A stretch of 64,000 nucleotides of DNA, taken from NCBI GenBank assembly GCA_977017645.1, contig CDRNVU010000048.1, positions 1,612,001 through 1,676,000 on the forward strand, read 5' to 3'. The DNA comes from Torpedo marmorata. Lineage: Eukaryota. Position numbers and translations under genes: made by a program. This document shows positions 1 through 54,953 of this stretch, piece after piece. Under the pieces are notes generated by a model, which saw only the letters and a list, made by a program, of their open reading frames with translations, searched no databases and was not told where the DNA came from. Position 1 is the first letter of the stretch. Every line of letters starts with the position of its first letter.

Positions 1-28
1 AAAATTCATTACTTTGTGTATTTCATCT

Positions 29-1026
29 AGGTAATTTAATTTTAGATAAAAATCTATTAATTTTAGAATCATCTTGATCAATCTGAGATTTATATAAATT
101 CAAATAATAATCTTTAAAATAATAATTTATTTCTCTAGGTTTATATGTTATTTTCTTAGAATTATTTTTATAGCATTTATAGTTCTCAAAGTTTGATCTT
201 TCTTTAATTGCCACGCCAGCACTTTATGTGCTCTTTCTCCCAATTCATAATATCTTTGTTTAGTTATTACAATTAATTTTTCCGTTTTGTATGTTTGTGA
301 CAAATTATAATGCAATTTTTTCCCAACTAAATTATTCCTTTTTTCTTCTGATCTCTTTTTTTGCAAGTTCTTCTCCAAACATTCAATCTCCCTCTTCAAA
401 TTATACACCTCTCGAACATAGTCCTTCTTAATTTTTGCTGAATAACTTATTATTGGTCCTCTTAAATAAGCCTTTAAAGCTTCCCAAATAATAAATTTAT
501 TATCAGTCGAATTAGAATTTATTTGTAAAAATTCCTGAATTTCCCTTCTTATATAATCACAAAACTCCATTATTTTTAATAAAAAAGTATTAAATCTCCA
601 CCTATATATTGTGTTTTTCTGGAATTATACAAGACATTAATAAAGCCGAATGGTCAGAAATTATTCTCGCTTTATAAGATGCTTTTGTTGCTCTGTCTTG
701 AACTTGTGAAGACAATAAAAACAGATCTACCCGAGAATATGAATCATGTCTAAAAGAGTAAAAAGAGTAATCTTCTTCTCTAGGATTCAATGTTCTCCAA
801 ATATCTATTAAATTTAAGTCTTTCATCAAAGTCAGAACTCTTTTGGCAATTTTAGGTTTAGAAACTGATCTTGATGTTTTATCCATTATCGGATCTAAAC
901 AACAGTTTAAATCCCCACCAATTAAAATATTATCAATAGCTTCTGACAAATGCAAAAAAAGAATCTTGAGTAAATTTTCGTCATTCGCATTTGGTGCATA
1001 TAAGTGTCCACAATTCCGAATATATA
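29..1026 (-). mobile_element. L1-clade LINE fragment (ORF2 APE endonuclease and linker), 5'-truncated and frameshifted
   Basis: ORFs 602-955 (ILIGGDLNC, YSRVDLFL, ISDHSAL), 148-570 (IWEALKAYLRG) and 23-214. The DNA aligns by eye with the L1 copy at about 60405-61420. Confidence 0.92.
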
Positions 1027-2391
1027 GTGGTTATTGGAGAAAAGTTTTGGTGACAAGCATATAATTTCTAGAGTCTATACACAGAAAGCTCTTTCATGGT
1101 CATCAATAATACCAGAGGACACGGATGGTTTACAATCTTACGCCCTCTTTCTCAGAGGATTTTTAAACGTCATGACGGATATTGCCTATCGTCGAGAGGT
1201 TGACGTACCTCAGAATATGGTAAACATTGTAGATAAATTACCAAACCGGATGAGAGAATTATTTAAAATACAAGTTCTTGAATATCAAATAAAACACAAG
1301 GTGGCAACTACTTTTTAGGATTTGGTGGATTTCATTGAAGGACAAGTGGATGTTGTTACAGATCCAGTGTATGGAATTAAGAGTACTCAAACAGTGAGTA
1401 AAGAGGTTGAAAATACCAAATTGTATCCGCAACCAAAATTAAAGACAAGTACATTTGCCACCTCTCTCACAGTGGTGGATAAAGAAATTAAGGAAACTAA
1501 AAGTTCACCTGTTGAGAATATTTGTTTATTATGTAATTATAAGCACGATTTGGGAAAATATGCACAGATTGAAAAGTAGACGCATCGTGAGAAATCGCTT
1601 TTTTGAAGGGAAATGGAGTGTGTTATGTCTGTCTGTGTAAAGGAAACATCAGAAAAGACTGCAAAAAGCGACTCTCCTGCGATATATGTAATCAAAAACA
1701 TCCCAAAATGCTACACGTCTTCAAGGAAAAGAAGGATACAGAAAAGGAACAAACGTCGATGAAAGAAACAGATGAAAACAGTGCTCAAGCTTCAGTGTCG
1801 ACAAGTGGCCTGACTGGGGCCGGTGCAGAGAACTACAAACTCTCGATAGGACCTGTACAAGTTAATGCCAATATTGGGAATGAAACAGTACATACTTATG
1901 CATTTCGTGAACAAGGAAGCACTGCATCATTTTGCACTGTTGGGCTTATGAAAAGGCTTAAACCTGAAGAAAAAAGACAAATATTCTATTGAAAACCATG
2001 GAACAAAATATCTTTTTTAAACTAACATGGTTTCATGTTTATAGGCTGCTGGAAAACACAGTGACGATTTTTGTGATCTTCCAGGCATATATACACAGAA
2101 GGCTATGCCTGTGCATAAAGGAAACAAACCACATCAAAGTGAGGTGGATCAGTGGTCCTATCTGAGGAAGGTTTATATGCCGGAAGATAACTCTAAGATA
2201 GAGATGCTAATTGGTTTAAATGTACAAAAGGCTCTGGGACCAATAGAGGTAATACCTAGTGTGAGAGATAGACCTTACGCTATTAAAACAATGCTTGAAT
2301 TGACAATCAATGGACCATTAGAAAGAAAGAATGATATTGCTCAGAAGCAGTCAACAACCAGTGTCAATATGATATCTGTTGTGAAACTGAA

Positions 2392-3915
2392 AGAACCTTC
2401 AGAAGAATACAAACAGTTATTAGAAATTCTTGCTGATGAAAATGAATCAAGATCATCTAAATCGGTAAGGAAGAAATTGTTTTCATCAAAAATGGATGAA
2501 AATGAAGCATTCGAAAATGCTGCAAATACTGCAGGTGATTATTCCTGTGAAGTTAAATCAAACGGAAAGAATGAAACAAATATTTGATCAAAATCAAGAT
2601 CAAGATTCCATTTATTGTCATAATAATAAGACAGTGTCATATTCCATGAAATTTCTTTTTGCCTGCTGCAAGGCAGACAGATTCGCCACCGGCAGAAATT
2701 GCCTAAGCGCCTCTAACATTCCTTACAGTCAGAGAAAGAGAAGGAAAGAGAGACCCCCCAGAGTCATCGAGTGTCCGTAGATTCGCCTCCAGCGCTTCCG
2801 CAGCCTCCGCAGCCACAGAGAGTCCAGTCCAAACCATCGGCAAGCCGAGCTCCAGATCGAACCTCCGACACGGTCAGGGCGCCCTCGGCACCCCCTCGCA
2901 TCCCGGTTGCGATACCTGGTACTCCTCCAGCCAGTTCGAGCCAGCCTCCAGTAGTCCGCAGCCCAGCGTGAGTCCCCCGACAGAAGTCTCCAGCAGCCCA
3001 CAGCCTCCGCCGGTTCCTCGCCTCGAGTCGCAAGCAGACCGCCGAATGCACTGGTCCTTCAGCCTCAGAGCCCCTCACTGGTCCGCCGCCGTGGTCACCG
3101 TCCCGTGGGTCGTCTCCTCCGCTTCTCCTTCTCAGACGGGGGGTGATCTTCCCGACCTCTGGTGCCCTGCTCTAGTCCTCCGCTTCCCCGGAGTCTGCAG
3201 CCCCTCGTGGCTGCTGCCGGTTAAAAGGCGCTGCCATATTGGGCGCAGACTCTATGGTTGCGGGATCGTAAATAAAACCAAACAAATCTGACAATATGGC
3301 GCAACTGCCTTCAGAGTACAAAATGTTGAAAAATAACTTAGAAATATTGGATGGTCCAGAAAAATATGACCAAAAAGTTTTGAAGTTTGAACTTGAAAAC
3401 AACACTGAATCTGATAAATCGTCAGTTTTGAAAGTAACCGAAAGAGAAGCTCAGAGAGCAGTTGACAAGAATGGAGAATTAATTGTAAATATAATTCGTA
3501 AAACCATGAAGAAAAGAATAACTGCTAAAGAAATGAATGCAGTTATTTACGAAAGGGATTCAGCATTATCAAGATGCAAAAGGCTGGAGGAGGAGATTCA
3601 TTTTGTGAAAGAGAACAAGTCATTGTTTAATGACACAAGACAACTGACTATGGAAAACAATGAAGAATGTACCGTGACGATGCAAATATAAAGACATATT
3701 ATATTCTTGAAGACCCAGTTGAAAATGCAGAAAGAAAGAAATATTACATTATTGAAGACCCAGTTAATAAATACAGAAAGGGAATCTGATTAAAAAATTG
3801 CAAGGTAAATCATCAATAAATGAGACTGAATTGGAAGATGCAAAATTGGATCCGGAATTACAGGAAAAGACAATGGAAGCCAGAGTGGCTGTTGATGAAT
3901 TTGAGGAACCAATGT
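2392..3915 (+). pseudogene. MIPOL1: Intronless MIPOL1-like coiled-coil fragment inside the BEL element, interrupted by an insertion at 2584-3292
   Basis: ORF 3296-3691 contains KNGELIVNIIRKTMKKRITAKEMNAVIYERDSALSRCKRLEEEIHFVKE...TRQLTMENNEE. This matches vertebrate MIPOL1 as I recall it (KNGAIIVDRIYKTKECKMRITAEEMSALIEERDAALSKCKRLEQELHHVKE...MRHLTAENNQE). Boundaries are approximate. Confidence 0.8.
2584..3292 (-). mobile_element. ~710 bp non-coding GC-rich retroposon with a Rex1/Babar-type 3' tail
   Basis: On the minus strand it ends ATGACAATAAATGGAATCTTGATCTTGAT, and its 5' end has an AATATGGCAGCG motif. It is flanked by AATAT at 2579-2583 and 3293-3297 (candidate TSD). Confidence 0.65.
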
Positions 3916-4187
3916 TGTTTGAGTCCTACCCTTTCTATAACCGACCGCTGTAGAAAAAGGAACAGAGAAAGAAGACTCATCTTGTGTCCTCAAGAAAGTG
4001 AATACCTTGGAAATTGAAATTGACTTTCCAAACAGAACGATTACCAAAATCTGACTTTTAAATGAAACAGAAAGCTTTAATGATTGACTTTCAATTTCAT
4101 TTGAATATTTACCGGATGTGTTATTATATTTGATTCTCTTTATAGTTGTCATTATTATTTTTAAATATAATAATTTGGGGCCGGAAT

Positions 4188-4612
4188 TGTAAGTGTTAAA
4201 ATGACATTCAATCACTTGTTCACTTGGGATGCCAGTTTGTGGCAGCCTGCAGTTTGTTTTGCATTCCTTTGAGTGTTTCTGTTGTTGCAGCCTGTGAGAC
4301 CAAAGCCTTTCTCTGTGGTTTTGAGGTAAGACAGTCAGTTTTGAATTGTTCTTACTTCTGAGAAGATGGAGGGTCTTGGAATAGACCTGCAACTATACTG
4401 ACCGTTTAAAGTAACGGGTCAAGTAACGTATAAATTATATTTTAAGCATCATGTTAATCGTATCTCAAAGGTGATAAGTAATAACCCATATAAGGTGTAA
4501 TAAACCTTGGAAAACTCTATTCAAGTTCTTCGTGGATCGTTTTCGATAAATGAGTAATAAATAAGGACATTCCAGGCTCTCCAGGAGACTATATAGGAAG
4601 ATAGTCGCTACA
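4188..4612 (+). repeat. 3' LTR of the BEL/Pao element
   Basis: Follows the PPT-like GGGGCCGGAAT (4177-4187). Begins TGTAAG, ends GCTACA and contains AATAAA. CR1 sequence starts immediately after it. Confidence 0.7.
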
Positions 4613-6212
4613 CGAGAACAGCTTTTCCAAAATAGGGCGCCCATAACTGTGCACAGTACTTCAAGTGAGGTCTCACCAGCGCCCTGTAGAGCCTCATCAT
4701 TACACCCAGCTCTCATATGCTATTCCTCTAGAAATGAATGCCAACTTTGCATTCGCCAGCTTTCTTCACTGCCGACTTAACCTTGAGGTTAACCTTTAGG
4801 GTTTCCTGCACGAGGACTCCCAAGTACCTTTGCACCTCTGAATTTTGAATTTTATCTCCGTCTAAATAATAGACCGCCCGTCTTTGTCTTGTACCAAAGT
4901 GTATGACTGGACATACATCGTATTTCACCTGCCCTCTCCTTGCCCAATCTCCTAATCTATGCAAGTCTCTCTGCAGCCTTTCCGTGTCCTCAGCACCAAC
5001 AGCTCTACCACCTATTTTGGTGTCATCTGCCTAACCATGCTATTATACTTCCTGTAATTCCATGAGCGCACATCTTGTTAAGCAGCATCACATGTTACAC
5101 CTTGTCGAAGACCTTTTTGAAAGTCCAAATACACAACCTCCACTGATTCTCCCCTGTCCTTCCTGTTTATTGTCTCCACAAAATATGTCAAAGATTTGTC
5201 AGGCATGATTTTGCTTTAAGGAAACCATGCTGACTTGGAAATATCTTGTGAGACTCCTCTGGGTTCTCCGTAACCTCATCTTTGACAATTGATTGCAACA
5301 TCTTCCCAAACACCAACGTCAGATTAATAGGTCTGTTGTTTTACTTCCGCTGCTCCCTTCCACTTTTCAAGAAAAGAGTGACATTCGCGCTTCTTCAGTC
5401 CTCTGTAACCATGTCATAATCCGATTATTCTTTCAAAATCATTATCAATGCCTCCACAATCTCTGCAGCAACCTCCTTCCAAATTCAAGGGTGCATTCCT
5501 CCGGTCGGGGAGACTTATCTACCCTTAGACCATTTCTCTTCCCAAGTACCTTCTCTCTCGTGAACTTGACAGCACTCACTTCACATCCCAGAGACCTTTG
5601 AGAGTCAGATAAGCTACAAATGTCTTCAACTGTAAAGACTGATAAAATAAATATTTATTTAGTTCTTCTGCCATTGCAAACTCTCCGGCGTCATTTTCTA
5701 ACGGATCTATGTCTACTCGTGTCTCTCTTTTGCTCTTTATTTACTTATACAGAAGCTTTTTAACATCCTATTTGATATTATTTGCTCACCTCCTTACATG
5801 ATTTTTCTTTTCCTTCCTAATCACCTTTTCAGTTTCATTCTCTGTTTTTTTTAAAGTTTCCCACTCCTCCATCATCCCCCAAAGTGTTGCTTCCTTGTAT
5901 GGCCTCACTTTTGCTTTAACATTGGCTTTAACTTCCCTCGTCAGCCATAATTGTCTCATTTTTCCACTCATAACTTCCTTTCCTTTGGTATGTACCTGCT
6001 CTGCACTTTCCTCATTTTTGCAGAAATTTAAGCCATTGCTGATCTGCTGTTATCCCGAATAGTGTGATTTCCCAATGACTTTAGCCAGATCCTCTTTTAT
6101 GCGACTGAAACTTCCTTTACTCCACTGAAGTGTCGACACATCGGACATTTGCCTTTCCTTTTCAAATTTCACAGTGAATTCGATCATATTGTGATCACTG
6201 CTTCCTAGGGGT
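4613..6212 (-). mobile_element. CR1 LINE ORF2 fragment, decayed
   Basis: ORF 4728-4964 (WARRGQVKY, IHFG, RYLGVLVQETLK) and 5786-5971 (LWLTREVKANVKAK), with ADDTKI-like and HDFALRKPC-like remnants. Confidence 0.85.
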
Positions 6213-6214
6213 TA

Positions 6215-6335
6215 TTGCGTGTGTGTTTTTTGGAATGTGCTTGTTTGTGTGCGTATGTGCGTATGCGTGTTTGAATAAAAAGGTGTGTGTGCTTGTGTGT
6301 GTGTGTGTGCGTGTGTGCGCGCGCGCGCGCGTGTT
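6215..6335. repeat. Degenerate (TG)n/(CG)n microsatellite
   Basis: Direct reading: gtgtgtgtgtgtgcgtgtgtgcgcgcgcgcgcgc. Confidence 0.9.
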
Positions 6336-6739
6336 GGGGGGGGCGGGAAGCGTATGCCTGAGAGTAACTGAGGTGTATGTGCTCTCAGGTGATGTAAGGC
6401 AGAAGACAATTGAAGCTGGAGTTTACTACATAGATTCCCTAAGCCAGGCACGTCGTTCATTGTGGCCTTTGCTTATCTCTGCTGATCTCCTCTTCTATGC
6501 CATGTCCACGAGACCTTCCATTCGTTGAACTTTGAAATATTTCCTCTCTCCCCATTGAAGACATCCAATAATCTTGCTTCCCTCTCTGGAAGGTAATTCA
6601 AGCGATTAACCGTTCTCTGGGGTATACTTTGAATAGCCAGCACCTGACGTTTTATCTACGACCTATTCTTCGTCACTCCACACGTGTACGTAAACTTCTA
6701 CCTTGCACACCCCCATTGGTATCTCGAGAGTAAAACCCG

Positions 6740-6900
6740 AAAATCTGCAGGAACCGTGATAAAAATAAAAATAAAATACTGGAGAAACTCAGCAGTTCAA
6801 GCAATGTACGTTATATAGCAAAGGTAAAAACACATAACCAATATTTCAGGCTTTAGCCCTTCGTCAAGGCATGAATAAAACGTAAGAAGACACCCGATCA
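6740..6900 (-). repeat. Penelope-like terminal repeat (pseudo-LTR) fragment
   Basis: ctggagaaactcagc motif. The reverse complement resembles the copies at about 45195-45300, 48460-48560 and 52965-53085. Confidence 0.55.
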
Positions 6901-7273
6901 AAACTGGAATCTCTCTGTTTAAATAAAGTCGTCCCTCAATCATCTCAACTCCTGGTAATATCGGCACACAGTATCAACGTTTTGACTGAAGGTCTGGAGC
7001 CAATATGCTCTACTGCGATCCAGCAAATGCATCTGGTACATCTTATATCTCAATATTGATCCCATGAGGTTATGCATCAAATACAGAAAGACAGATCATT
7101 ATCTTAATTATCTTAATCTGTAAAAAGTGAAGTTCTATGAGCTTGGGACATCCTTGGAAAATAAACTCCAACATGAACAAGTGGTTTTGCAGTAATCGGC
7201 TGCTGTAATTTCCAGAGCAACACACACTCAGCGATCTTTGGCGAACTGTCAGATATTGTTTACAAATATACTA

Positions 7274-8370
7274 AAATCAAGTTCAAGTTTGTTTGTAGTC
7301 CAATTGTACAAGTACAAACAAATGAAAACAGTGTTCTCCGGTCCTCTGTGCACAATATGCACTCGTACAGTCATTACACACATACANNNNNNNNNNNNNN
7401 NNNNNNNNNNNNNNNNNNNNNNNNNNNNNNNNNNNNNNNNNNNNNNNNNNNNNNNNNNNNNNNNNNNNNNNNNNNNNNNNNNNNNNNNNNNNNNNNNNNN
7501 NNNNNNNNNNNNNNNNNNNNNNNNNNNNNNNNNNNNNNNNNNNNNNNAACTTGTTTACTTGTTTCTCATCCTGCTTGTGCTGCCTCTGATACTCCTATAA
7601 CGCTTTTCTGACGGGAGGAGTTACAAATGCTATGTGTGTGGTGGTTTGGACCCACTACGATTTTGCGAGCCCTCTTCAAAAACCACACCGCTAAATCACG
7701 TCGATGGGGGATGAGTGAGACCCAAATTACTGTCTCTTCCGCTTTTATGGTCCTCTGGATTTGCTTCCGATCTAATGCACCACAGCAAACATACCACACA
7801 GTGATGCAGCAGGCCAGAAGTCCTGTATAAAGTTGATCTGATGGTGGCGGTAGCGTTGCCCGCTTCCATCTTCTCAGGAAGTGCTGTCGCTGTTTCTCCT
7901 TGCTGACAAGGGAGGATATGTTATGTGCCTAAGATAGGTCACTTCTTAAGTGAACTACGAATATTTTGGTGCAGTCTATTCTCTCCACTCACTAAATATT
8001 GATGTGTGGTGGTGGATGGTCCTCCCTGGTCCTCCTGACGTCCAACATTATCTTCCTTGTCTTGATCAATTGGAGACTCAGTTTCTCCCAGCATATCACA
8101 AGATTTTACACCTCGTTTCACTTTGTTGCTGATGAGGCCAAAAACTCTCGTGTCATCTGCAAATGTGATGACACTGTTTGAGGTGTATCTGCCGTTTCAG
8201 TCGTGGATCAGTCGTGTGAACAGGAGAGTGCTCATTACACAGCCCTGCGGTGCGCCCGTGCTGAGCGCGACGGTGCTCAACGTTATATTGCCGAACCGAA
8301 CAGACTGTCGCCCTTCCGTTGGAAGTACAGAACCCATTAGCATGGAAAGGTGTAGGGTCCCATCGAGGAA
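7274..8370 (-). mobile_element. Rex1/Babar LINE 3' portion, spanning an N gap
   Basis: RT motifs [16 protein letters not shown] and FADDT on the minus strand. The tail at about 7274-7350 resembles the one at 19480. Confidence 0.85.
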
Positions 8371-29465: not shown

Positions 29466-31442
29466 CAAGCACTCAGCCATAGACATAAATGAATATGCAA
29501 CAGGTGTCACCGACTTCATCAAGACCTGCGTGGATGAGTCTGTGCCCACGCGCAAATACCGGGTGTTCCCCAACCAGAAGCCCTGGATGAATCAAAGAAT
29601 TCGCAACTTGCTGAGGACGAGAACAAGGGCGTTTAAAGAGGGGGACCGGGATCTTTACAAAAAGTCCAGGCACGACCTGCGGAAGGCCATCTCTGAAGGA
29701 AAGTGGCAATTCCGAAGGAAGCTGGAGACAGAGACAGATACACGCCAGCTATGGCAGGGAATGCAGGCCATTACAGCCTACAAAACGAGGGCGAACACTA
29801 TAGACGGCTGTGATGCTTCACTACCCGATGAGCTGAACACCTTCTATGCCCGCTTTGAGAAGAAGAACAAAACAGTGCCTAATAGAATCCCTGAGAGGGC
29901 AGAGGACCCTGTGATATCTGTCTCTGAGGGCGACGTCAGAACATCATTCAAGAGGGTGAACCCTCGCAAGGCGTCAGGCCCTGACGGCGTACCTGGCAGG
30001 GTACTGAAAATCTGCGCCAACCAACTAACAGGAGTGTTCACGGACATTTTCAACCTCTCATTGCGGCAGTCAGAGGTTCCCACCTGCTTCAAAAGGGCAT
30101 CAATCATCCCGGTGCCCAAGAAGAGTAGTGTGAGCTGCCTCAACGACTATCGCCCAGTAGCACTAACTTCTACTCTGATGAAATGCTTTGAGAGGCTGGT
30201 CATGGCCAGAATTAACACATACCTAAGCAATTCGCCTATCGTCACAATCGCTCCACAGCAGATGCAATATCGCTGGCTCTCCACTCAGCTCTGGATCACC
30301 TCGAAAACAACAATTCATACATACGGCTGCTCTTCATAGACTACAGCTCGGCCTTCAATACCATTATTCCCTCAGTACTGGTCAGGAAGCTACAAACTGT
30401 AGGCCTCTGTACCCCACTCTGCAACTGGATCCTTGACTTTCTCATCGGAAGACCACAGTCAGTAGGAATTGGAAACAACGTCTCCTCCTCACTGATTATC
30501 AACACAGGCGCACCCCAAGGATGCGTGCTTAGTCCACTGCTCTACTCGTTATACACTCATGACTGTGTGGCCAGGCACAATTCCAATGCCATATACAAGT
30601 TTGCCGATGACACCACAGTTGTCGGCAGAATCACAAACGCCAATGAGGAAGCGTACAGGAGGGAGATAGATCAGCTCATTGAATGGTGTAATGACAACAA
30701 CCTCGAGCTCAACGTCAGCAAAACCAAGGAGATGATTGTGGACTTCAGGAGGAAGTCAGGGGAACACAACCCAGTCCTCATCGAGGGCTCAGTCGTGGAG
30801 AGGGTCAAGAACTTCAAATTCCTGGGTGTCAACATCTCCGAGGATCTGTCCTGGAGCATCCACGTGGATGCAATCACAAAGAAGGCTGGTCAGCGGCTAT
30901 ACTTTGTGAGGCGATTGCGGAGATTCGGTATGTCGCCAAAGACTCTCGTGAACTTCTACAGGTGTACCGTGGAGAGCATTCTAGCTAGTTGCATCACTGC
31001 CTGGTATGGTGGTGCCAACTCCCAGGACAAGAGCAAACTCCAGAAGGTTGTTACCTCGGCCTGTGACATCACGGGCACCAAACTTCACTCCATCGAGGAC
31101 ATCTACATGAGGCGATGTCTTAATAAAGCAGCCTCTATCCTCAAGGACCCCCACCACCCAGGCCATGCCCTCTTCACGCTGCTTCCATCGGGGAAAAGGT
31201 ACAGGAGCCTAAAGACGAGCACTCAACGGCACAAGGTCAGCTTCTTCCCCGCTGCCATCAGAATCCTGAACAATCAATGAACCAAAGACACTAGTGCACT
31301 ATTGTTTATAATTTTTTATATAGTAATGTCGTTAGAATGGTTAATATGAATGTTAATTGCACTATGATGCTGCCGCAAAGCACCGAATTTCATGACTTGT
31401 TCATGACAATAAATTCTGATTCTGATTCTGATTCTGATTCTG
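29466..31442 (+). mobile_element. Young 5'-truncated Rex1/Babar LINE (RT ORF with one frameshifting deletion near 30230)
   Basis: ORF 29530-30339 (PNQKPW, KASGPDGV, NDYRPVALTS) and ORF 30525-31280 ([25 protein letters not shown]), with an (ATTCTG)n tail. The paralogous empty site is at about 23020. Confidence 0.95.
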
Positions 31443-39589: not shown

Positions 39590-42500
39590 ATAAATAACAG
39601 TAGCATATCGAAACTCACTTTTACTTAAATTAACTGTGAGATTCGCTTTCGACAGTCGTTCGAACAATTGTTTTAGCTCAAAGACATGCTCTTCCCAGTT
39701 GTCACTACTTACAATTAAATCATCAATGTAAGCACCTGTGTTTTTAAACCCATGAATTACTGAATTAATCATTCTCTGAAATGTTCCTGGAGCATTCTTC
39801 ATACCAAAAGGCATAACATTATACTCATACAGCCCAAAACGTTTTACGAATGCAGAAATCTCACTAGCCCTTTTTGTCAAAGGAACACACCAGTACCCTT
39901 TCAATAAGTCAATTTTTGTAAGATATTTGGCCTTCCCCACGTTGTCTGTACAATCGTCTATTCTAGGAATAGGATAAGCATCTGTTTTTTACAGCATTTA
40001 CTTTCCTATAATCAGTGCAAAACCTAACCGTTCCATTAGGCTTAGGCACTAAAACACAAGGGAAACTCCAATTGGAAGTTGACTTTCGAATGATTTTGTT
40101 CCATACCATGTAGTCAATTTCCTGATCTACCAGTTTGCACTTTTCCGCATTAATTCGATAGGGATGTTGTTTTATCGGTCTTGCATCTCCTACATCCACA
40201 TCATGATAAGCGATGGAAATTTTCTGAGGCACATCGGGAAATAAATTTATTCATTTTAAAAATAACTGACTCATCTCTTCCTTTTCAGAAGTTTTCAGAT
40301 GAGCCAACTTTGTCTCCAGATTGCACAAAATCATGGAATTTAATAACCTCGGGCTTATCAATTTCTGTGTCCCATGACCCTCTCTGAAACTGGTTATATC
40401 TGTCTCCTCCTTACCCTGATCAATAACCAGCATCTCTGGTAAATGTTCAGTCCCTTTGTATGGCACCTGTTCAAAATATGGCTTAATCATATTCACATGA
40501 CAGACCTGGGTGTCTCGTCTGCGATTAGGTGTTTCTATGACATAGGTGACATCATTAAATTTTGACTTAACTCTATAGGGTCCTGAAAATCTAGCCCTAA
40601 GAGGATTTGAATGGATGGGAAACAGAACTAATACGTTCTCACCAGGTTTAAAAGTTCTCATCTATGCCCTTCGATCATACCAAACCTTCATTCTCTGTTG
40701 AGAGGCCTTTAAATTATCCTTCGCTATCTCACAAGCCCTATGCAACCGATCCTTAAATTTTGAAACATAATCTAACAGATTTAAATGCACATCACATTTA
40801 AACCACTGTTCTTTTAATAATTTTAAAGGACATCTCACCTCATGTCGAAAACTACCTCGAATGGACTAAAACGAAGTTATTCTTGGACAGACTCCCTCGC
40901 TGCAAATAAAAACAAATGAACCCCCTCATCCCAATCCTTTTACTTCTCACAACAATAGGTTGTAATAATGTTTTTCAAAGACGAATGGAACCTCTCCAAG
41001 GCCCCTTTACTTTCTGGATGGGACGCAGATGATACAATCTGTTTAATTCCCAGTCCATCAACCACTTGTTGGAAAACGCCTGACATGGAATTACTGCCCT
41101 GATCTGATTTAATTTCGTTTGGAAAACCTACCAAGGTGAAAAACTGTACTATAGCCTTTCCCATTGCTTTTGCTTTAATGTTTCTCAGAAGAATGGTCTC
41201 TGGAAATCTGGTGGCTGCACACATAATTGTTAACAAATACTCATTCCCCGCTTTGGTTTTGGGCAATGGGCCAACACAGTCCACAATCACTCTCGAGAAA
41301 TTCTCGCTGAAAGCAGAGATAGGTTGCAAGGGTGCAACCGGGGTACCCTGATTAGGTTTACCCACCAACTGACAAGTGTGACAGGCCCGGCAAAAGCTTA
41401 CAACCTCCCTTCTCAAACTGGACCAATACAATTGTTTCATTATATTCCGTATAGTTTTCTTCACCATAATGTGACCACCTAAGGGTGTGCTGGGAGCCAA
41501 AGTTATTATTGCATCCCAATATACTTCAGGAATCACAACCCGCTGCACTACTGCCCATTCTTCATTGGCAGGAACATCACATGGTCTCCACTTTCTCATC
41601 AACACCCCATCTTTTTCATAGTAACCCATTGGCAACATTTTAATCTCCTCTTCAGAAAAAAACATATCCCTCACCTCAGCAAGATCAGGATACTCCTTTT
41701 GCCTTGCTATTTGCTCCTGTCGGGATAGTGACAAATATGTGCCTTCAGGTGTCTTACCATTGGATGGGTGTAACACAGGAGATTATCTCAACCTTTTCCA
41801 GGTATTCTAGATTATCACTGACTTTTTCTTTCACCAATATCGTTTCCACTGCCTTCTCTACAGTGACATTTTTCTTAGACATGGCCCTGGTTATGGCACA
41901 TGCCGCATAAATATCAGAGTCTTTCTCTGACATCAATGACTGGCTTAGTGGTCATTCGCACTGCAGGAACTACTTTACCCTCGGCCACGTCATTGCCTAG
42001 CAACAGTGAGACTCCTTCTACTGGCAACTCTCCTCTCACTCCTATTATAACAGGTCCTTCCACCAAGGCTGAGTCCAGCACTATTTTGCGCAAAGGAATG
42101 GACTCACCATCGTCACAAATTCCTTTAATCAAATTCATTTCACCGGTGTCAGTAGCTTCGCAAAAGTCCAAGACACTATCTAACACAAGTGACTGAGCAG
42201 CTCCAGTATCTCGCAAGATTTTCACTGGAACTTGCTTTGATCCTGCCTTAACTGAAACAAAGCCATCAGTCACAAAAGGTTTAAATACATCCCTAACTTT
42301 GTCAGTAAATTTGTCTCCTTCCTGGGTGTTATGCCTCTTCTCACTCTGAATACAAGCATTAGGCGTTGCATCCTTTTCTCTCTTCTTTTTCAACACTGGA
42401 CAGCTTGCTAACATATGACCAGCCTTCCTACAGTAGTGGCAAATGGGACCGGAAGGATTTTCCCTTTTCCACTTTCCTTCATCTCTTTCCTTAACACCAC

Positions 42501-53895: not shown

Positions 53896-54054
53896 TCCTT
53901 CCTGCCCTCTCCCGGTCTTTTCCACGGTCCAGGTCTCAGTTTCCACCGATCCGTGCGGGTAAAGTAATGTGGATGCGTTAACGAATCTGCCAAATTGTCG
54001 CTTTGGCTCCCGGTCTGGTCAGTAATTGATCTACATCTTTTCTCTCTATTGCAG

Positions 54055-54953
54055 CGAACTTGGTTGACATTGTTATCCTGTCCAGGGGAAAGTGCGGTCT
54101 CTCCAAGTGTGTCACTCGCTACCTGGTGGGGATGGCAGTGGCCGATCTCCTGGTCGTTATCTCCGACGCTCTGCTGAGGCAGACAGCTGACATTTATTTT
54201 CCATTTTCATTTCTCCTGTTTACCCCCGTCTGCCGTTTCAGGAAGTGGATGATCTTTGCAGTTACCGCGGCCTCCGTCTGGCTGACCGTCGTTTTCACCT
54301 TTGACCGATTTGTTGCCATTTGTCATGAGAAGCTGAAATCAAGATATTGCACCGAGAGAACGGCGGCTGTGGTTGTCGGGACTGTGAGTGTGCTGAGCTG
54401 TGTGGAGACAGTTCCCTGGTACATGACAATCGAACCTCTAGAATTCATTGACAATATTCCCTGGGGTTGTGTGGACAAACAGAACGTTGCAATGTCTCCT
54501 GCATGGGCTGCATTTGAGATATTTCACCGCATTTTAACTCCTTGTGTCCCGTTCTTTCTGATTCTGTTGCTCAATGCTCTGACGGTCAGACGGATTTTAG
54601 CGGCAAGTCGAGTCCGCAGGGAGCTCCGGGGCCGCAGAAACGGAGAGAATGAGAAGGATCCGGAGATGGAGAACCGACGGAAATCCATCGTTTTACTCTT
54701 CAGTATCACCGGCAGCTTCATCTTGTTGTGGGTGACACAGGTGGTGTTTTACATCTATCGACGAGTATCAAAGGTGTTTGAATACTCTGTGGTCGATCCC
54801 CGTTATATCACAGAAAGCATATCAGGAATGCTGCAGCTTCTCAGTTCCTGCACCAACACATGTATTTACGCCGTGACTCAGAGTAAATTCAGAGAGGAGC
54901 TAAAGAACGCGATTAAATACCCTCTGAGTCGGATCATGCAATTCGTTAAATGA
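54055..54953 (+). CDS. GPR139/GPR142-like class A GPCR, coding exon 2 (spliced product about 322 aa)
   Basis: Acceptor ttttctctctattgcag at 54054 and an open frame to TGA. Seven hydrophobic segments with the motifs MAVADLL, SVWLTVVFTFDRFVAIC, TPCVPF and SSCTNTCIY. Confidence 0.93.

Follow-up and report, generated by a model that had tools for sequence, protein, structure and literature searches.

The 64,000-nt stretch of Torpedo marmorata DNA analysed here (contig CDRNVU010000048.1, positions 1,612,001 to 1,676,000; hereafter the window) holds at positions 1026 to 4612 a copy of a BEL/Pao retrotransposon. With good confidence, this is a decayed non-autonomous element in which spliced host RNAs have taken the place of the reverse transcriptase (RT), ribonuclease H (RH) and integrase (IN) core, the MIPOL1 portion likely having come from a circular RNA (circRNA). 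The copy itself is a dead, heavily deleted member of an older branch, and the interest lies in its family: probably, an element with long terminal repeats (LTRs) took up a circRNA with the back-splice joint included, joined it in frame to Gag-protease along with parts of as many as four further genes and reached more than 14,000 sites by passing onto successive helper backbones. The element and its immediate neighbour are composed as follows.

1..1025, minus strand: L1/Tx1-type long interspersed element (LINE) fragment, endonuclease end, adjoining the BEL element (PF14529, E 1.9e-5 on 602-1030)
1026..2388, plus strand: 3' half of BEL gag, Cys-His knuckles, protease and post-protease part (blastx, 79% identity to L184, tree, translation)
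about 1534-1710, plus strand: Cys-His knuckles, within the BEL gag-protease part
about 1900-1925, plus strand: protease with degenerate motif, within the BEL gag-protease part
2391..2422, plus strand: short BEL pol remnant after internal deletion (89% to the BEL part of L145; alignable with L184)
2423..2586, plus strand: BRCA1 cargo part 1, the end of one exon spliced to the start of the large exon (host matches on C61)
2587..3279, minus strand: secondary 693-bp dispersed repeat inside the BRCA1 piece (present/absent pattern across relatives)
3280..3456, plus strand: BRCA1 cargo part 2, large exon, internally deleted (C61:25488338-25488147 at 79-83%)
3454..3750, plus strand: MIPOL1 downstream block, exon Ee from its middle, Ef and the start of Eg (blastn to host exons, 84-96%)
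3770..3891, plus strand: MIPOL1 upstream block, end of exon Ea and Eb (tblastn, amino acids (aa) 338-370; Eb 85%; L147 82%)
3885..3966, plus strand: Elongin A (ELOA) cargo remnant (C41:38994582-38994666 at 78%)
3964..4014, plus strand: likely relic of the IARS1-to-NDC80 joint of L137-type relatives (local score against shuffles; L257 as intermediate)
4017..4187, plus strand: BEL pol C-terminal tail, 3' spacer and purine-rich tract (82% identity to L184; alignment)
about 4176-4186, plus strand: purine-rich tract, directly before the LTR
4188..4612, plus strand: 3' LTR, TG...CA, 425 bp (matches both LTRs of L031-L033; starts like the LTRs of L184 and L186)

By blastx, window 1031-2446 corresponds to aa 438-909 of an intact 2018-aa BEL open reading frame (ORF) of the same genome, which carries PF05380 (Peptidase_A17), DUF5641, RVT_1 and rve in Pfam; in the window copy the BEL part is interrupted by stops and frameshifts. 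The initial annotation, which was made from the letters alone, had recognized BEL Gag, zinc knuckles, protease and post-protease motifs here, and this assignment is borne out, as are the retained C-terminal end of pol (4017-4204, 82% identity to the autonomous copy L184) and the purine-rich tract followed by a TG...CA LTR. The end of the BEL sequence, placed at about 2390, has to be moved to about 2422 according to the alignments with L145 and L184. No RT, RH or IN match was found in the window copy, in agreement with the proposed replacement of the pol core, and the 5' LTR expected upstream did not turn up: the 10 kb upstream of the copy gave neither a 5' LTR nor a gag match, and the minus-strand LINE adjoins at 1025. 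Pfam searches with the BEL and cargo frames of the window gave no match, MIPOL1 families not being matched by the Pfam copy used, and Rfam gave none on window 1-8000. In the tree the BEL element is nested among PF05380-bearing elements, with homologous Gag, knuckles and protease.

The cargo, placed between gag-protease and the pol tail, is a mosaic. Its resemblance to MIPOL1, noted in the initial annotation, is real (67% identity, E 1e-21, to elasmobranch MIPOL1), and aligned to host MIPOL1 the insert spans host exon junctions; only about 440 bp (3454-3891) are MIPOL1, however, and the other parts of the insert are BRCA1, ELOA, the likely IARS1/NDC80 relic and the 693-bp repeat. The piece before MIPOL1 is BRCA1 (protein match E 1e-49), represented by four spliced host exons in long relatives; its part 1 in the window corresponds to C61:25497301-25497229 at 81% and 25488540-25488494 at 89%. 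The piece after MIPOL1 is ELOA, of which relatives hold up to five spliced exons. In one branch (L137, L138, L143, L146) a second ELOA piece precedes BRCA1, and IARS1 (E 7.5e-78) and then NDC80 (E 2.5e-12) follow ELOA, all in frame; window 3964-4014 reaches a local score of 52 against this IARS1/NDC80 joint, with a maximum of 40 in 1000 shuffles, and L257 links the two as an intermediate. About 18 nt between MIPOL1 and ELOA (L147:5690-5708) have no assigned source and are perhaps a sixth donor. The best protein matches of the cargo pieces are elasmobranch, which marks the host as a cartilaginous fish, and probes for MIPOL1 and BRCA1 taken from outside the cargo gave one match each in the 6.2 Gb genome. 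The cargo crosses host exon-exon junctions, and no poly(A) tail or target-site duplication (TSD) of its own was found at its ends. Apart from the back-splice joint described below, cross-gene joints lie within exons wherever the host exon borders have been mapped. Microhomology is uneven: BEL-ELOA shows 6 nt, two later deletions show about 7-8 nt each and BRCA1-MIPOL1 shows 2 nt, while none is clear at BEL-BRCA1. By these raw counts it is clear at some joints only (6-8 nt at three), which counts against the favoured explanation. That a non-autonomous BEL family with multi-gene cargo exists is nearly certain.

Two further changes mark the window copy. The 693-bp stretch at 2587-3279 is unrelated to the cargo and was inserted later: in one relatives search it is present in L001-L005 and absent in L006-L030 (25 of the 29 other loci), and it was matched in 18 of 237 loci, unrelated introns among them, as is seen with a dispersed repeat; its strand is deduced from a short simple-repeat tail at the left end. 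A 45-bp tandem duplication lies at 3690-3780 within the MIPOL1 region.

The MIPOL1 piece is circularly permuted. In less-deleted copies, MIPOL1 aa 437-553 run directly into aa 295-385, and in the window aa 437-535 stand before aa 338-370. A MIPOL1 cDNA with a deleted middle block, as originally read, is thereby set aside, since blocks in reversed order are no simple internal deletion; the seemingly missing block is the arc that was never copied plus a later deletion, because MIPOL1 is permuted and its joint was subsequently lost. With the host MIPOL1 exons mapped on C40, the cargo reads Ee (from its middle)-Ef-Eg and then Ea-Eb-Ec (the first ~19 bases of Ec), and at the joint the final base of Eg, behind which the gene has GT, meets the base that directly follows the proximal AG in the tandem acceptor of Ea. 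Both blocks are present in 169 of 221 stretches, many of which cover overlapping places, and in 168 of the 169 the order is permuted; the lone exception is a tandem array, itself permuted in detail. From Ea to Eg the exons measure 780 nt and close into a frame without a stop. The window copy no longer has the back-splice joint, which was deleted in its branch between two stretches of 7-8 nt that resemble each other. The joint is most simply read as a back-splice, and judged from these sequences the MIPOL1 piece would likely derive from a circular RNA, most simply the 780-nt circle. The earlier proposal of a template switch onto a host mRNA thus stands in so far as host RNA replaces RT-RH-IN, with the amendment that the MIPOL1 template would have been a back-spliced, likely circular RNA rather than an ordinary mRNA. 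L144:4835-5936 contains head-to-tail repeats of the MIPOL1 piece, near-identical and 405 bp long, which meet inside exons; this looks like a later tandem duplication rather than rolling-circle copying.

Exact counts were taken genome-wide with controls of 0; they are minimum values, in which tandem and segmental duplicates are counted too. They gave 109 exact copies of the host-identical 27-nt joint, 14,739 matches to a degenerate pattern of the diverged joint and 16,737 matches to a 25-nt MIPOL1 motif, and by rough estimate at least 16,737 copies of about 5.5-6 kb would make up ~1.5% of the genome. Near-host copies are about 3-8% diverged and young copies about 17-20%. The BEL-BRCA1 joint of the window type gave 133 matches, which are not a clean count of the window's branch because L226-type copies share the joint. 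A BEL/Pao TSD is about 5 bp long. Paired TG...CA LTRs with a TSD were found in three of four window-type two-LTR copies, three of five intron copies and six of 20 copies picked by position among the first 100 listed on C1; in this last sample LTR pairs were 99.6-100% identical with 5-bp TSDs in five copies and a frame of >1,000 aa ran across the cargo in nine. Such LTR pairs mark the family as recently active. None of these 20 stretches, and none of 38 cargo stretches in another comparison (38/38), had an RT match. Autonomous BELs with ORFs >2,000 aa and identical LTRs exist, L170 and L172 among them. The suggestion of a multi-copy family amplified in trans is therefore supported, given two-LTR relatives with 5-bp TSDs and intact helpers. 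The autonomous ORF of L170 begins with a SAP domain, and so does the ORF of the young cargo element L242.

Young elements also lie close to one of their donors, five of them in MIPOL1 introns (G000:C40:64242001-64642000), one with LTRs 99.7% identical and a 1354-aa frame. At G000:C1:1498294-1518174 five motif matches spaced 4,964 bp apart form a head-to-tail array of young elements, 99.4-99.9% identical where fetched. A protein search with young-copy cargo found no match among 7,995 candidates of 695-2,212 aa, which does not prove absence. In public runs, 18 of the 20 listed rows contain a stretch of the window element, and among eight runs examined, contigs span the back-splice or a cross-gene joint under five organism labels (X1, X6, X7/X12/X17, X11, X13); in the run X5 all bins are covered, with no bridging piece among those listed. 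One of these runs possibly comes from the source sample itself. No run is recorded as RNA, and the element-type contigs in three runs whose RNA nature is a guess do not count as evidence of expression.

The window's branch is older, with LTR pairs about 90-96% identical and TSDs in three of four copies checked. The flank past the 3' LTR (4613-5368) is common to 25 of 29 other loci (L002-L026), mostly on small contigs, and these are therefore segmental duplicates of one insertion. Elsewhere in the window, 54030-54950 (plus strand) is a 307-aa stop-free frame with a 7tm_1 match to G protein-coupled receptors (E 4e-22), which may belong to a gene cluster whose duplication multiplied the window BEL copy, and 30216-31277 (plus strand) and 40943-41782 (minus strand) are ordinary LINE RT and LTR-type integrase fragments.

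The backbones point to a history other than that of the cargo. In a knuckle-protease tree the cargo elements do not form one clade (32 vs 16 rows; approximately unbiased test, p 2.3e-6): the window's branch is sister to the autonomous L175/L180/L184/L186, with which it shares the LTR start, the young branch lies among young autonomous elements, and older forms diverge as a ladder. The tree was midpoint-rooted, with autonomous copies chosen by profile score and with six, then eight, short-coverage stretches left out. The recurrence of identical joints across the branches gives the cargo a single origin, and since the backbones are not one clade, the cassette likely moved between helper lineages. 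Such an exchange of the cassette between BEL backbones is very probable, and recombination with co-packaged helper RNA is its likely route.

All seven capture joints (BEL-BRCA1, BRCA1-MIPOL1, MIPOL1-ELOA, BEL-ELOA, ELOA-BRCA1, ELOA-IARS1, IARS1-NDC80) are in frame, each in the host gene's own frame and in natural stop-free frames, which under random frames has a chance near 0.0005. Along replicating lineages stops are rare: they occur in 35 of 520 single non-CpG variants but in one of 104 shared ones (p 0.019; 30 pattern-picked copies). Of five young copies, four are free of stops over 206-269 aligned cargo codons, an outcome with a probability of 0.007-0.03 in a neutral simulation at 15-20% divergence; this last test was counted once because the copies share ancestry. 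Selection on the cargo amino acids was looked for in the ratio of nonsynonymous to synonymous variants, which is similar for shared and single variants, and in dN/dS against simulation, and was not found: cargo values of 0.42-1.16 lie largely inside the neutral range of 0.41-1.13. For gag and protease dN/dS is 0.28-0.60. The cargo accordingly seems to be a filler that keeps a frame open, not a working protein domain, an assessment held with somewhat less assurance than the circular origin. Escape from nonsense-mediated decay or packaging in cis are the likely, still hypothetical, reasons. One point counts against this assessment: the stop contrast is weaker in a 70-locus set (41 of 727 single vs eight of 260 shared), which is biased and may contain duplicates. 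The cargo frame does not always extend to the native pol stop. Alternatively, with the same origin, the cargo might have been kept since its coiled-coil peptides or host-like RNA aid the element in assembly, binding or small-RNA cover; the persistence of the cassette on several backbones, its dominance in the youngest branch and the open frame would fit, but the neutral-like dN/dS, the equal variant ratios and the deletion of different parts in different branches make this unlikely.

Taken together, the reverse transcriptase would have switched templates repeatedly onto co-packaged host RNA of BRCA1, MIPOL1 and ELOA, and later, in one branch, onto a second ELOA piece, IARS1 and NDC80. For MIPOL1 the template would have been the 780-nt circle running from Ea to Eg, on which copying began within Ee and stopped within Ec some 590 nt later. 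Helpers would supply RT and IN in trans, the element making its own Gag-protease, and the cargo would keep the RNA translated nearly to its 3' end. The cassette would then have recombined repeatedly onto new helper backbones, and the window copy was later multiplied passively by segmental duplication.

Several observations weigh against the circular template. The joint uses the proximal AG of the tandem acceptor, whereas a linear host contig in run X12, which departs from the element sequence on both sides of the joint, uses the distal AG; the same letters could arise from a blunt join one base past one exon border and two before another; the circular RNA itself was not seen, the public runs having given contigs only, whose RNA status is guessed; and exon repetition by trans-splicing or a lost tandem duplication would give the same joint. 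This last point is the core of the strongest competing origin, a linear RNA with repeated exons, generated by trans-splicing or an ancestral Ea-Eg tandem duplication. It accounts equally for a splice-exact joint, and less than one full turn of a circle was copied; yet each MIPOL1 exon is single-copy in 400 kb of the host locus, four MIPOL1 proteins have no exon repeat, host contigs in X12 and X17 are in linear order, and in the 221 stretches nothing from beyond the circle turned up (none matched the three exons tested that lie outside Ea-Eg), so that we regard it as improbable. Still less credible are two template switches on an ordinary MIPOL1 mRNA which by chance placed the joint on splice sites. 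The family often switches templates, having captured ELOA twice, and the exon ends share AG, a microhomology of 2-3 nt; a random switch, however, would land on donor and acceptor with a chance of about 7e-4, the other cross-gene joints with mapped borders fall inside exons, and relative to the acceptor chosen in the linear contig of X12, three bases of the joint are intronic. Capture from a circle thus remains the favoured origin of the MIPOL1 piece.

A MIPOL1 retrocopy made by a LINE in the ordinary way and inserted into a BEL element, the alternative which the initial annotation had itself put forward, is ruled out, despite the abundance of LINEs here and a preprint that, in the sections available, ascribes vertebrate retrocopies, those of MIPOL1 in cartilaginous fishes included, to non-LTR elements (10.64898/2026.06.26.734816): neither end of the cargo shows a poly(A) tail or TSD, pol has not been split but has lost about 1,000 aa to the cargo, several genes are joined in frame, and the copies move with LTRs and 5-bp TSDs. 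An assembly artefact, for which the duplicated region on small contigs in which the window copy lies might speak, is likewise ruled out by thousands of dispersed copies on large contigs and by the public-run contigs that bridge cross-gene or back-splice joints under five organism labels.

If true, these findings provide a direct mechanism for the retroposition of circRNAs and a fossil of a germline circRNA, and they explain where the surplus of MIPOL1 retrocopies in cartilaginous fishes really comes from. As the back-splice joint lies inside its vehicle, with flanking switch points, helpers and dated branches, the LTR route becomes directly testable. The series from near-host to young copies lets one ask what an element needs from a captured RNA, seemingly an open frame and not protein function, and the action of the family's small RNAs on host genes is a further testable question. 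In practice, the family will inflate retrocopy counts of MIPOL1, BRCA1 and ELOA and can mimic circRNA calls in these animals.

Acutely transforming retroviruses are helper-dependent and carry host coding sequence fused in place of pol. Maize Bs1, as cited in PMC5131818, is likewise a helper-dependent LTR element with host coding sequence in place of pol; unlike these, as far as the cited account goes, the BEL cargo shows no sign of protein selection and only its open frame is kept. Capture of mRNA by LTR elements has been described, and so have pseudogenes derived from circRNAs; no report was found that combines both at this scale. Literature searches, for which Repbase, Dfam and most subscription journals were outside reach, showed no description of this BEL cargo family, in line with the initial annotation, which knew of no MIPOL1-carrying BEL family. 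In its accessible part, the preprint 10.64898/2026.06.26.734816 puts MIPOL1 at the head of its list of genes with the most retrocopies in cartilaginous fishes and treats retrocopies as products of non-LTR elements that host selection has filtered, whereas the MIPOL1 copies examined here are cargo of a selfish BEL family; we infer that the retrocopies of the preprint are this family.

The closest precedents for the vehicle are the cases of LTR-mediated retroposition of Tan et al. (2016; PMC5131818), which in the available text comprise a two-gene chimera in the Pao element BATUMI, the BEL18_AG case and a four-gene mouse locus. There, as here, partial spliced host RNAs of several parent genes replace internal ORFs, with short microhomologies and without poly(A), and further rounds follow as non-autonomous elements. 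Those cases, as described in the portion available, concern single or few loci in linear mRNA order, the word circRNA being absent from the main text, in contrast to the BEL cargo family with its >16,000 copies, back-splice joint, long fused frame and backbone exchange. For the joint, the counterpart is the circRNA-derived pseudogenes of Dong et al. (2016; PMC4897178), represented in the available part of that paper by mouse circRFWD2 with 33 high-confidence and nine low-confidence copies, for which the mechanism is left open there and LTRs are enriched only in the flanks. A non-colinear exon joint, the restriction to circle exons, the absence of poly(A) and an association with LTRs are common to those pseudogenes, so far as they are described there, and to the cargo; in the present family, by contrast, the joint is part of a defined LTR element, reads in frame with Gag-protease and occurs at several hundred times the copy number.

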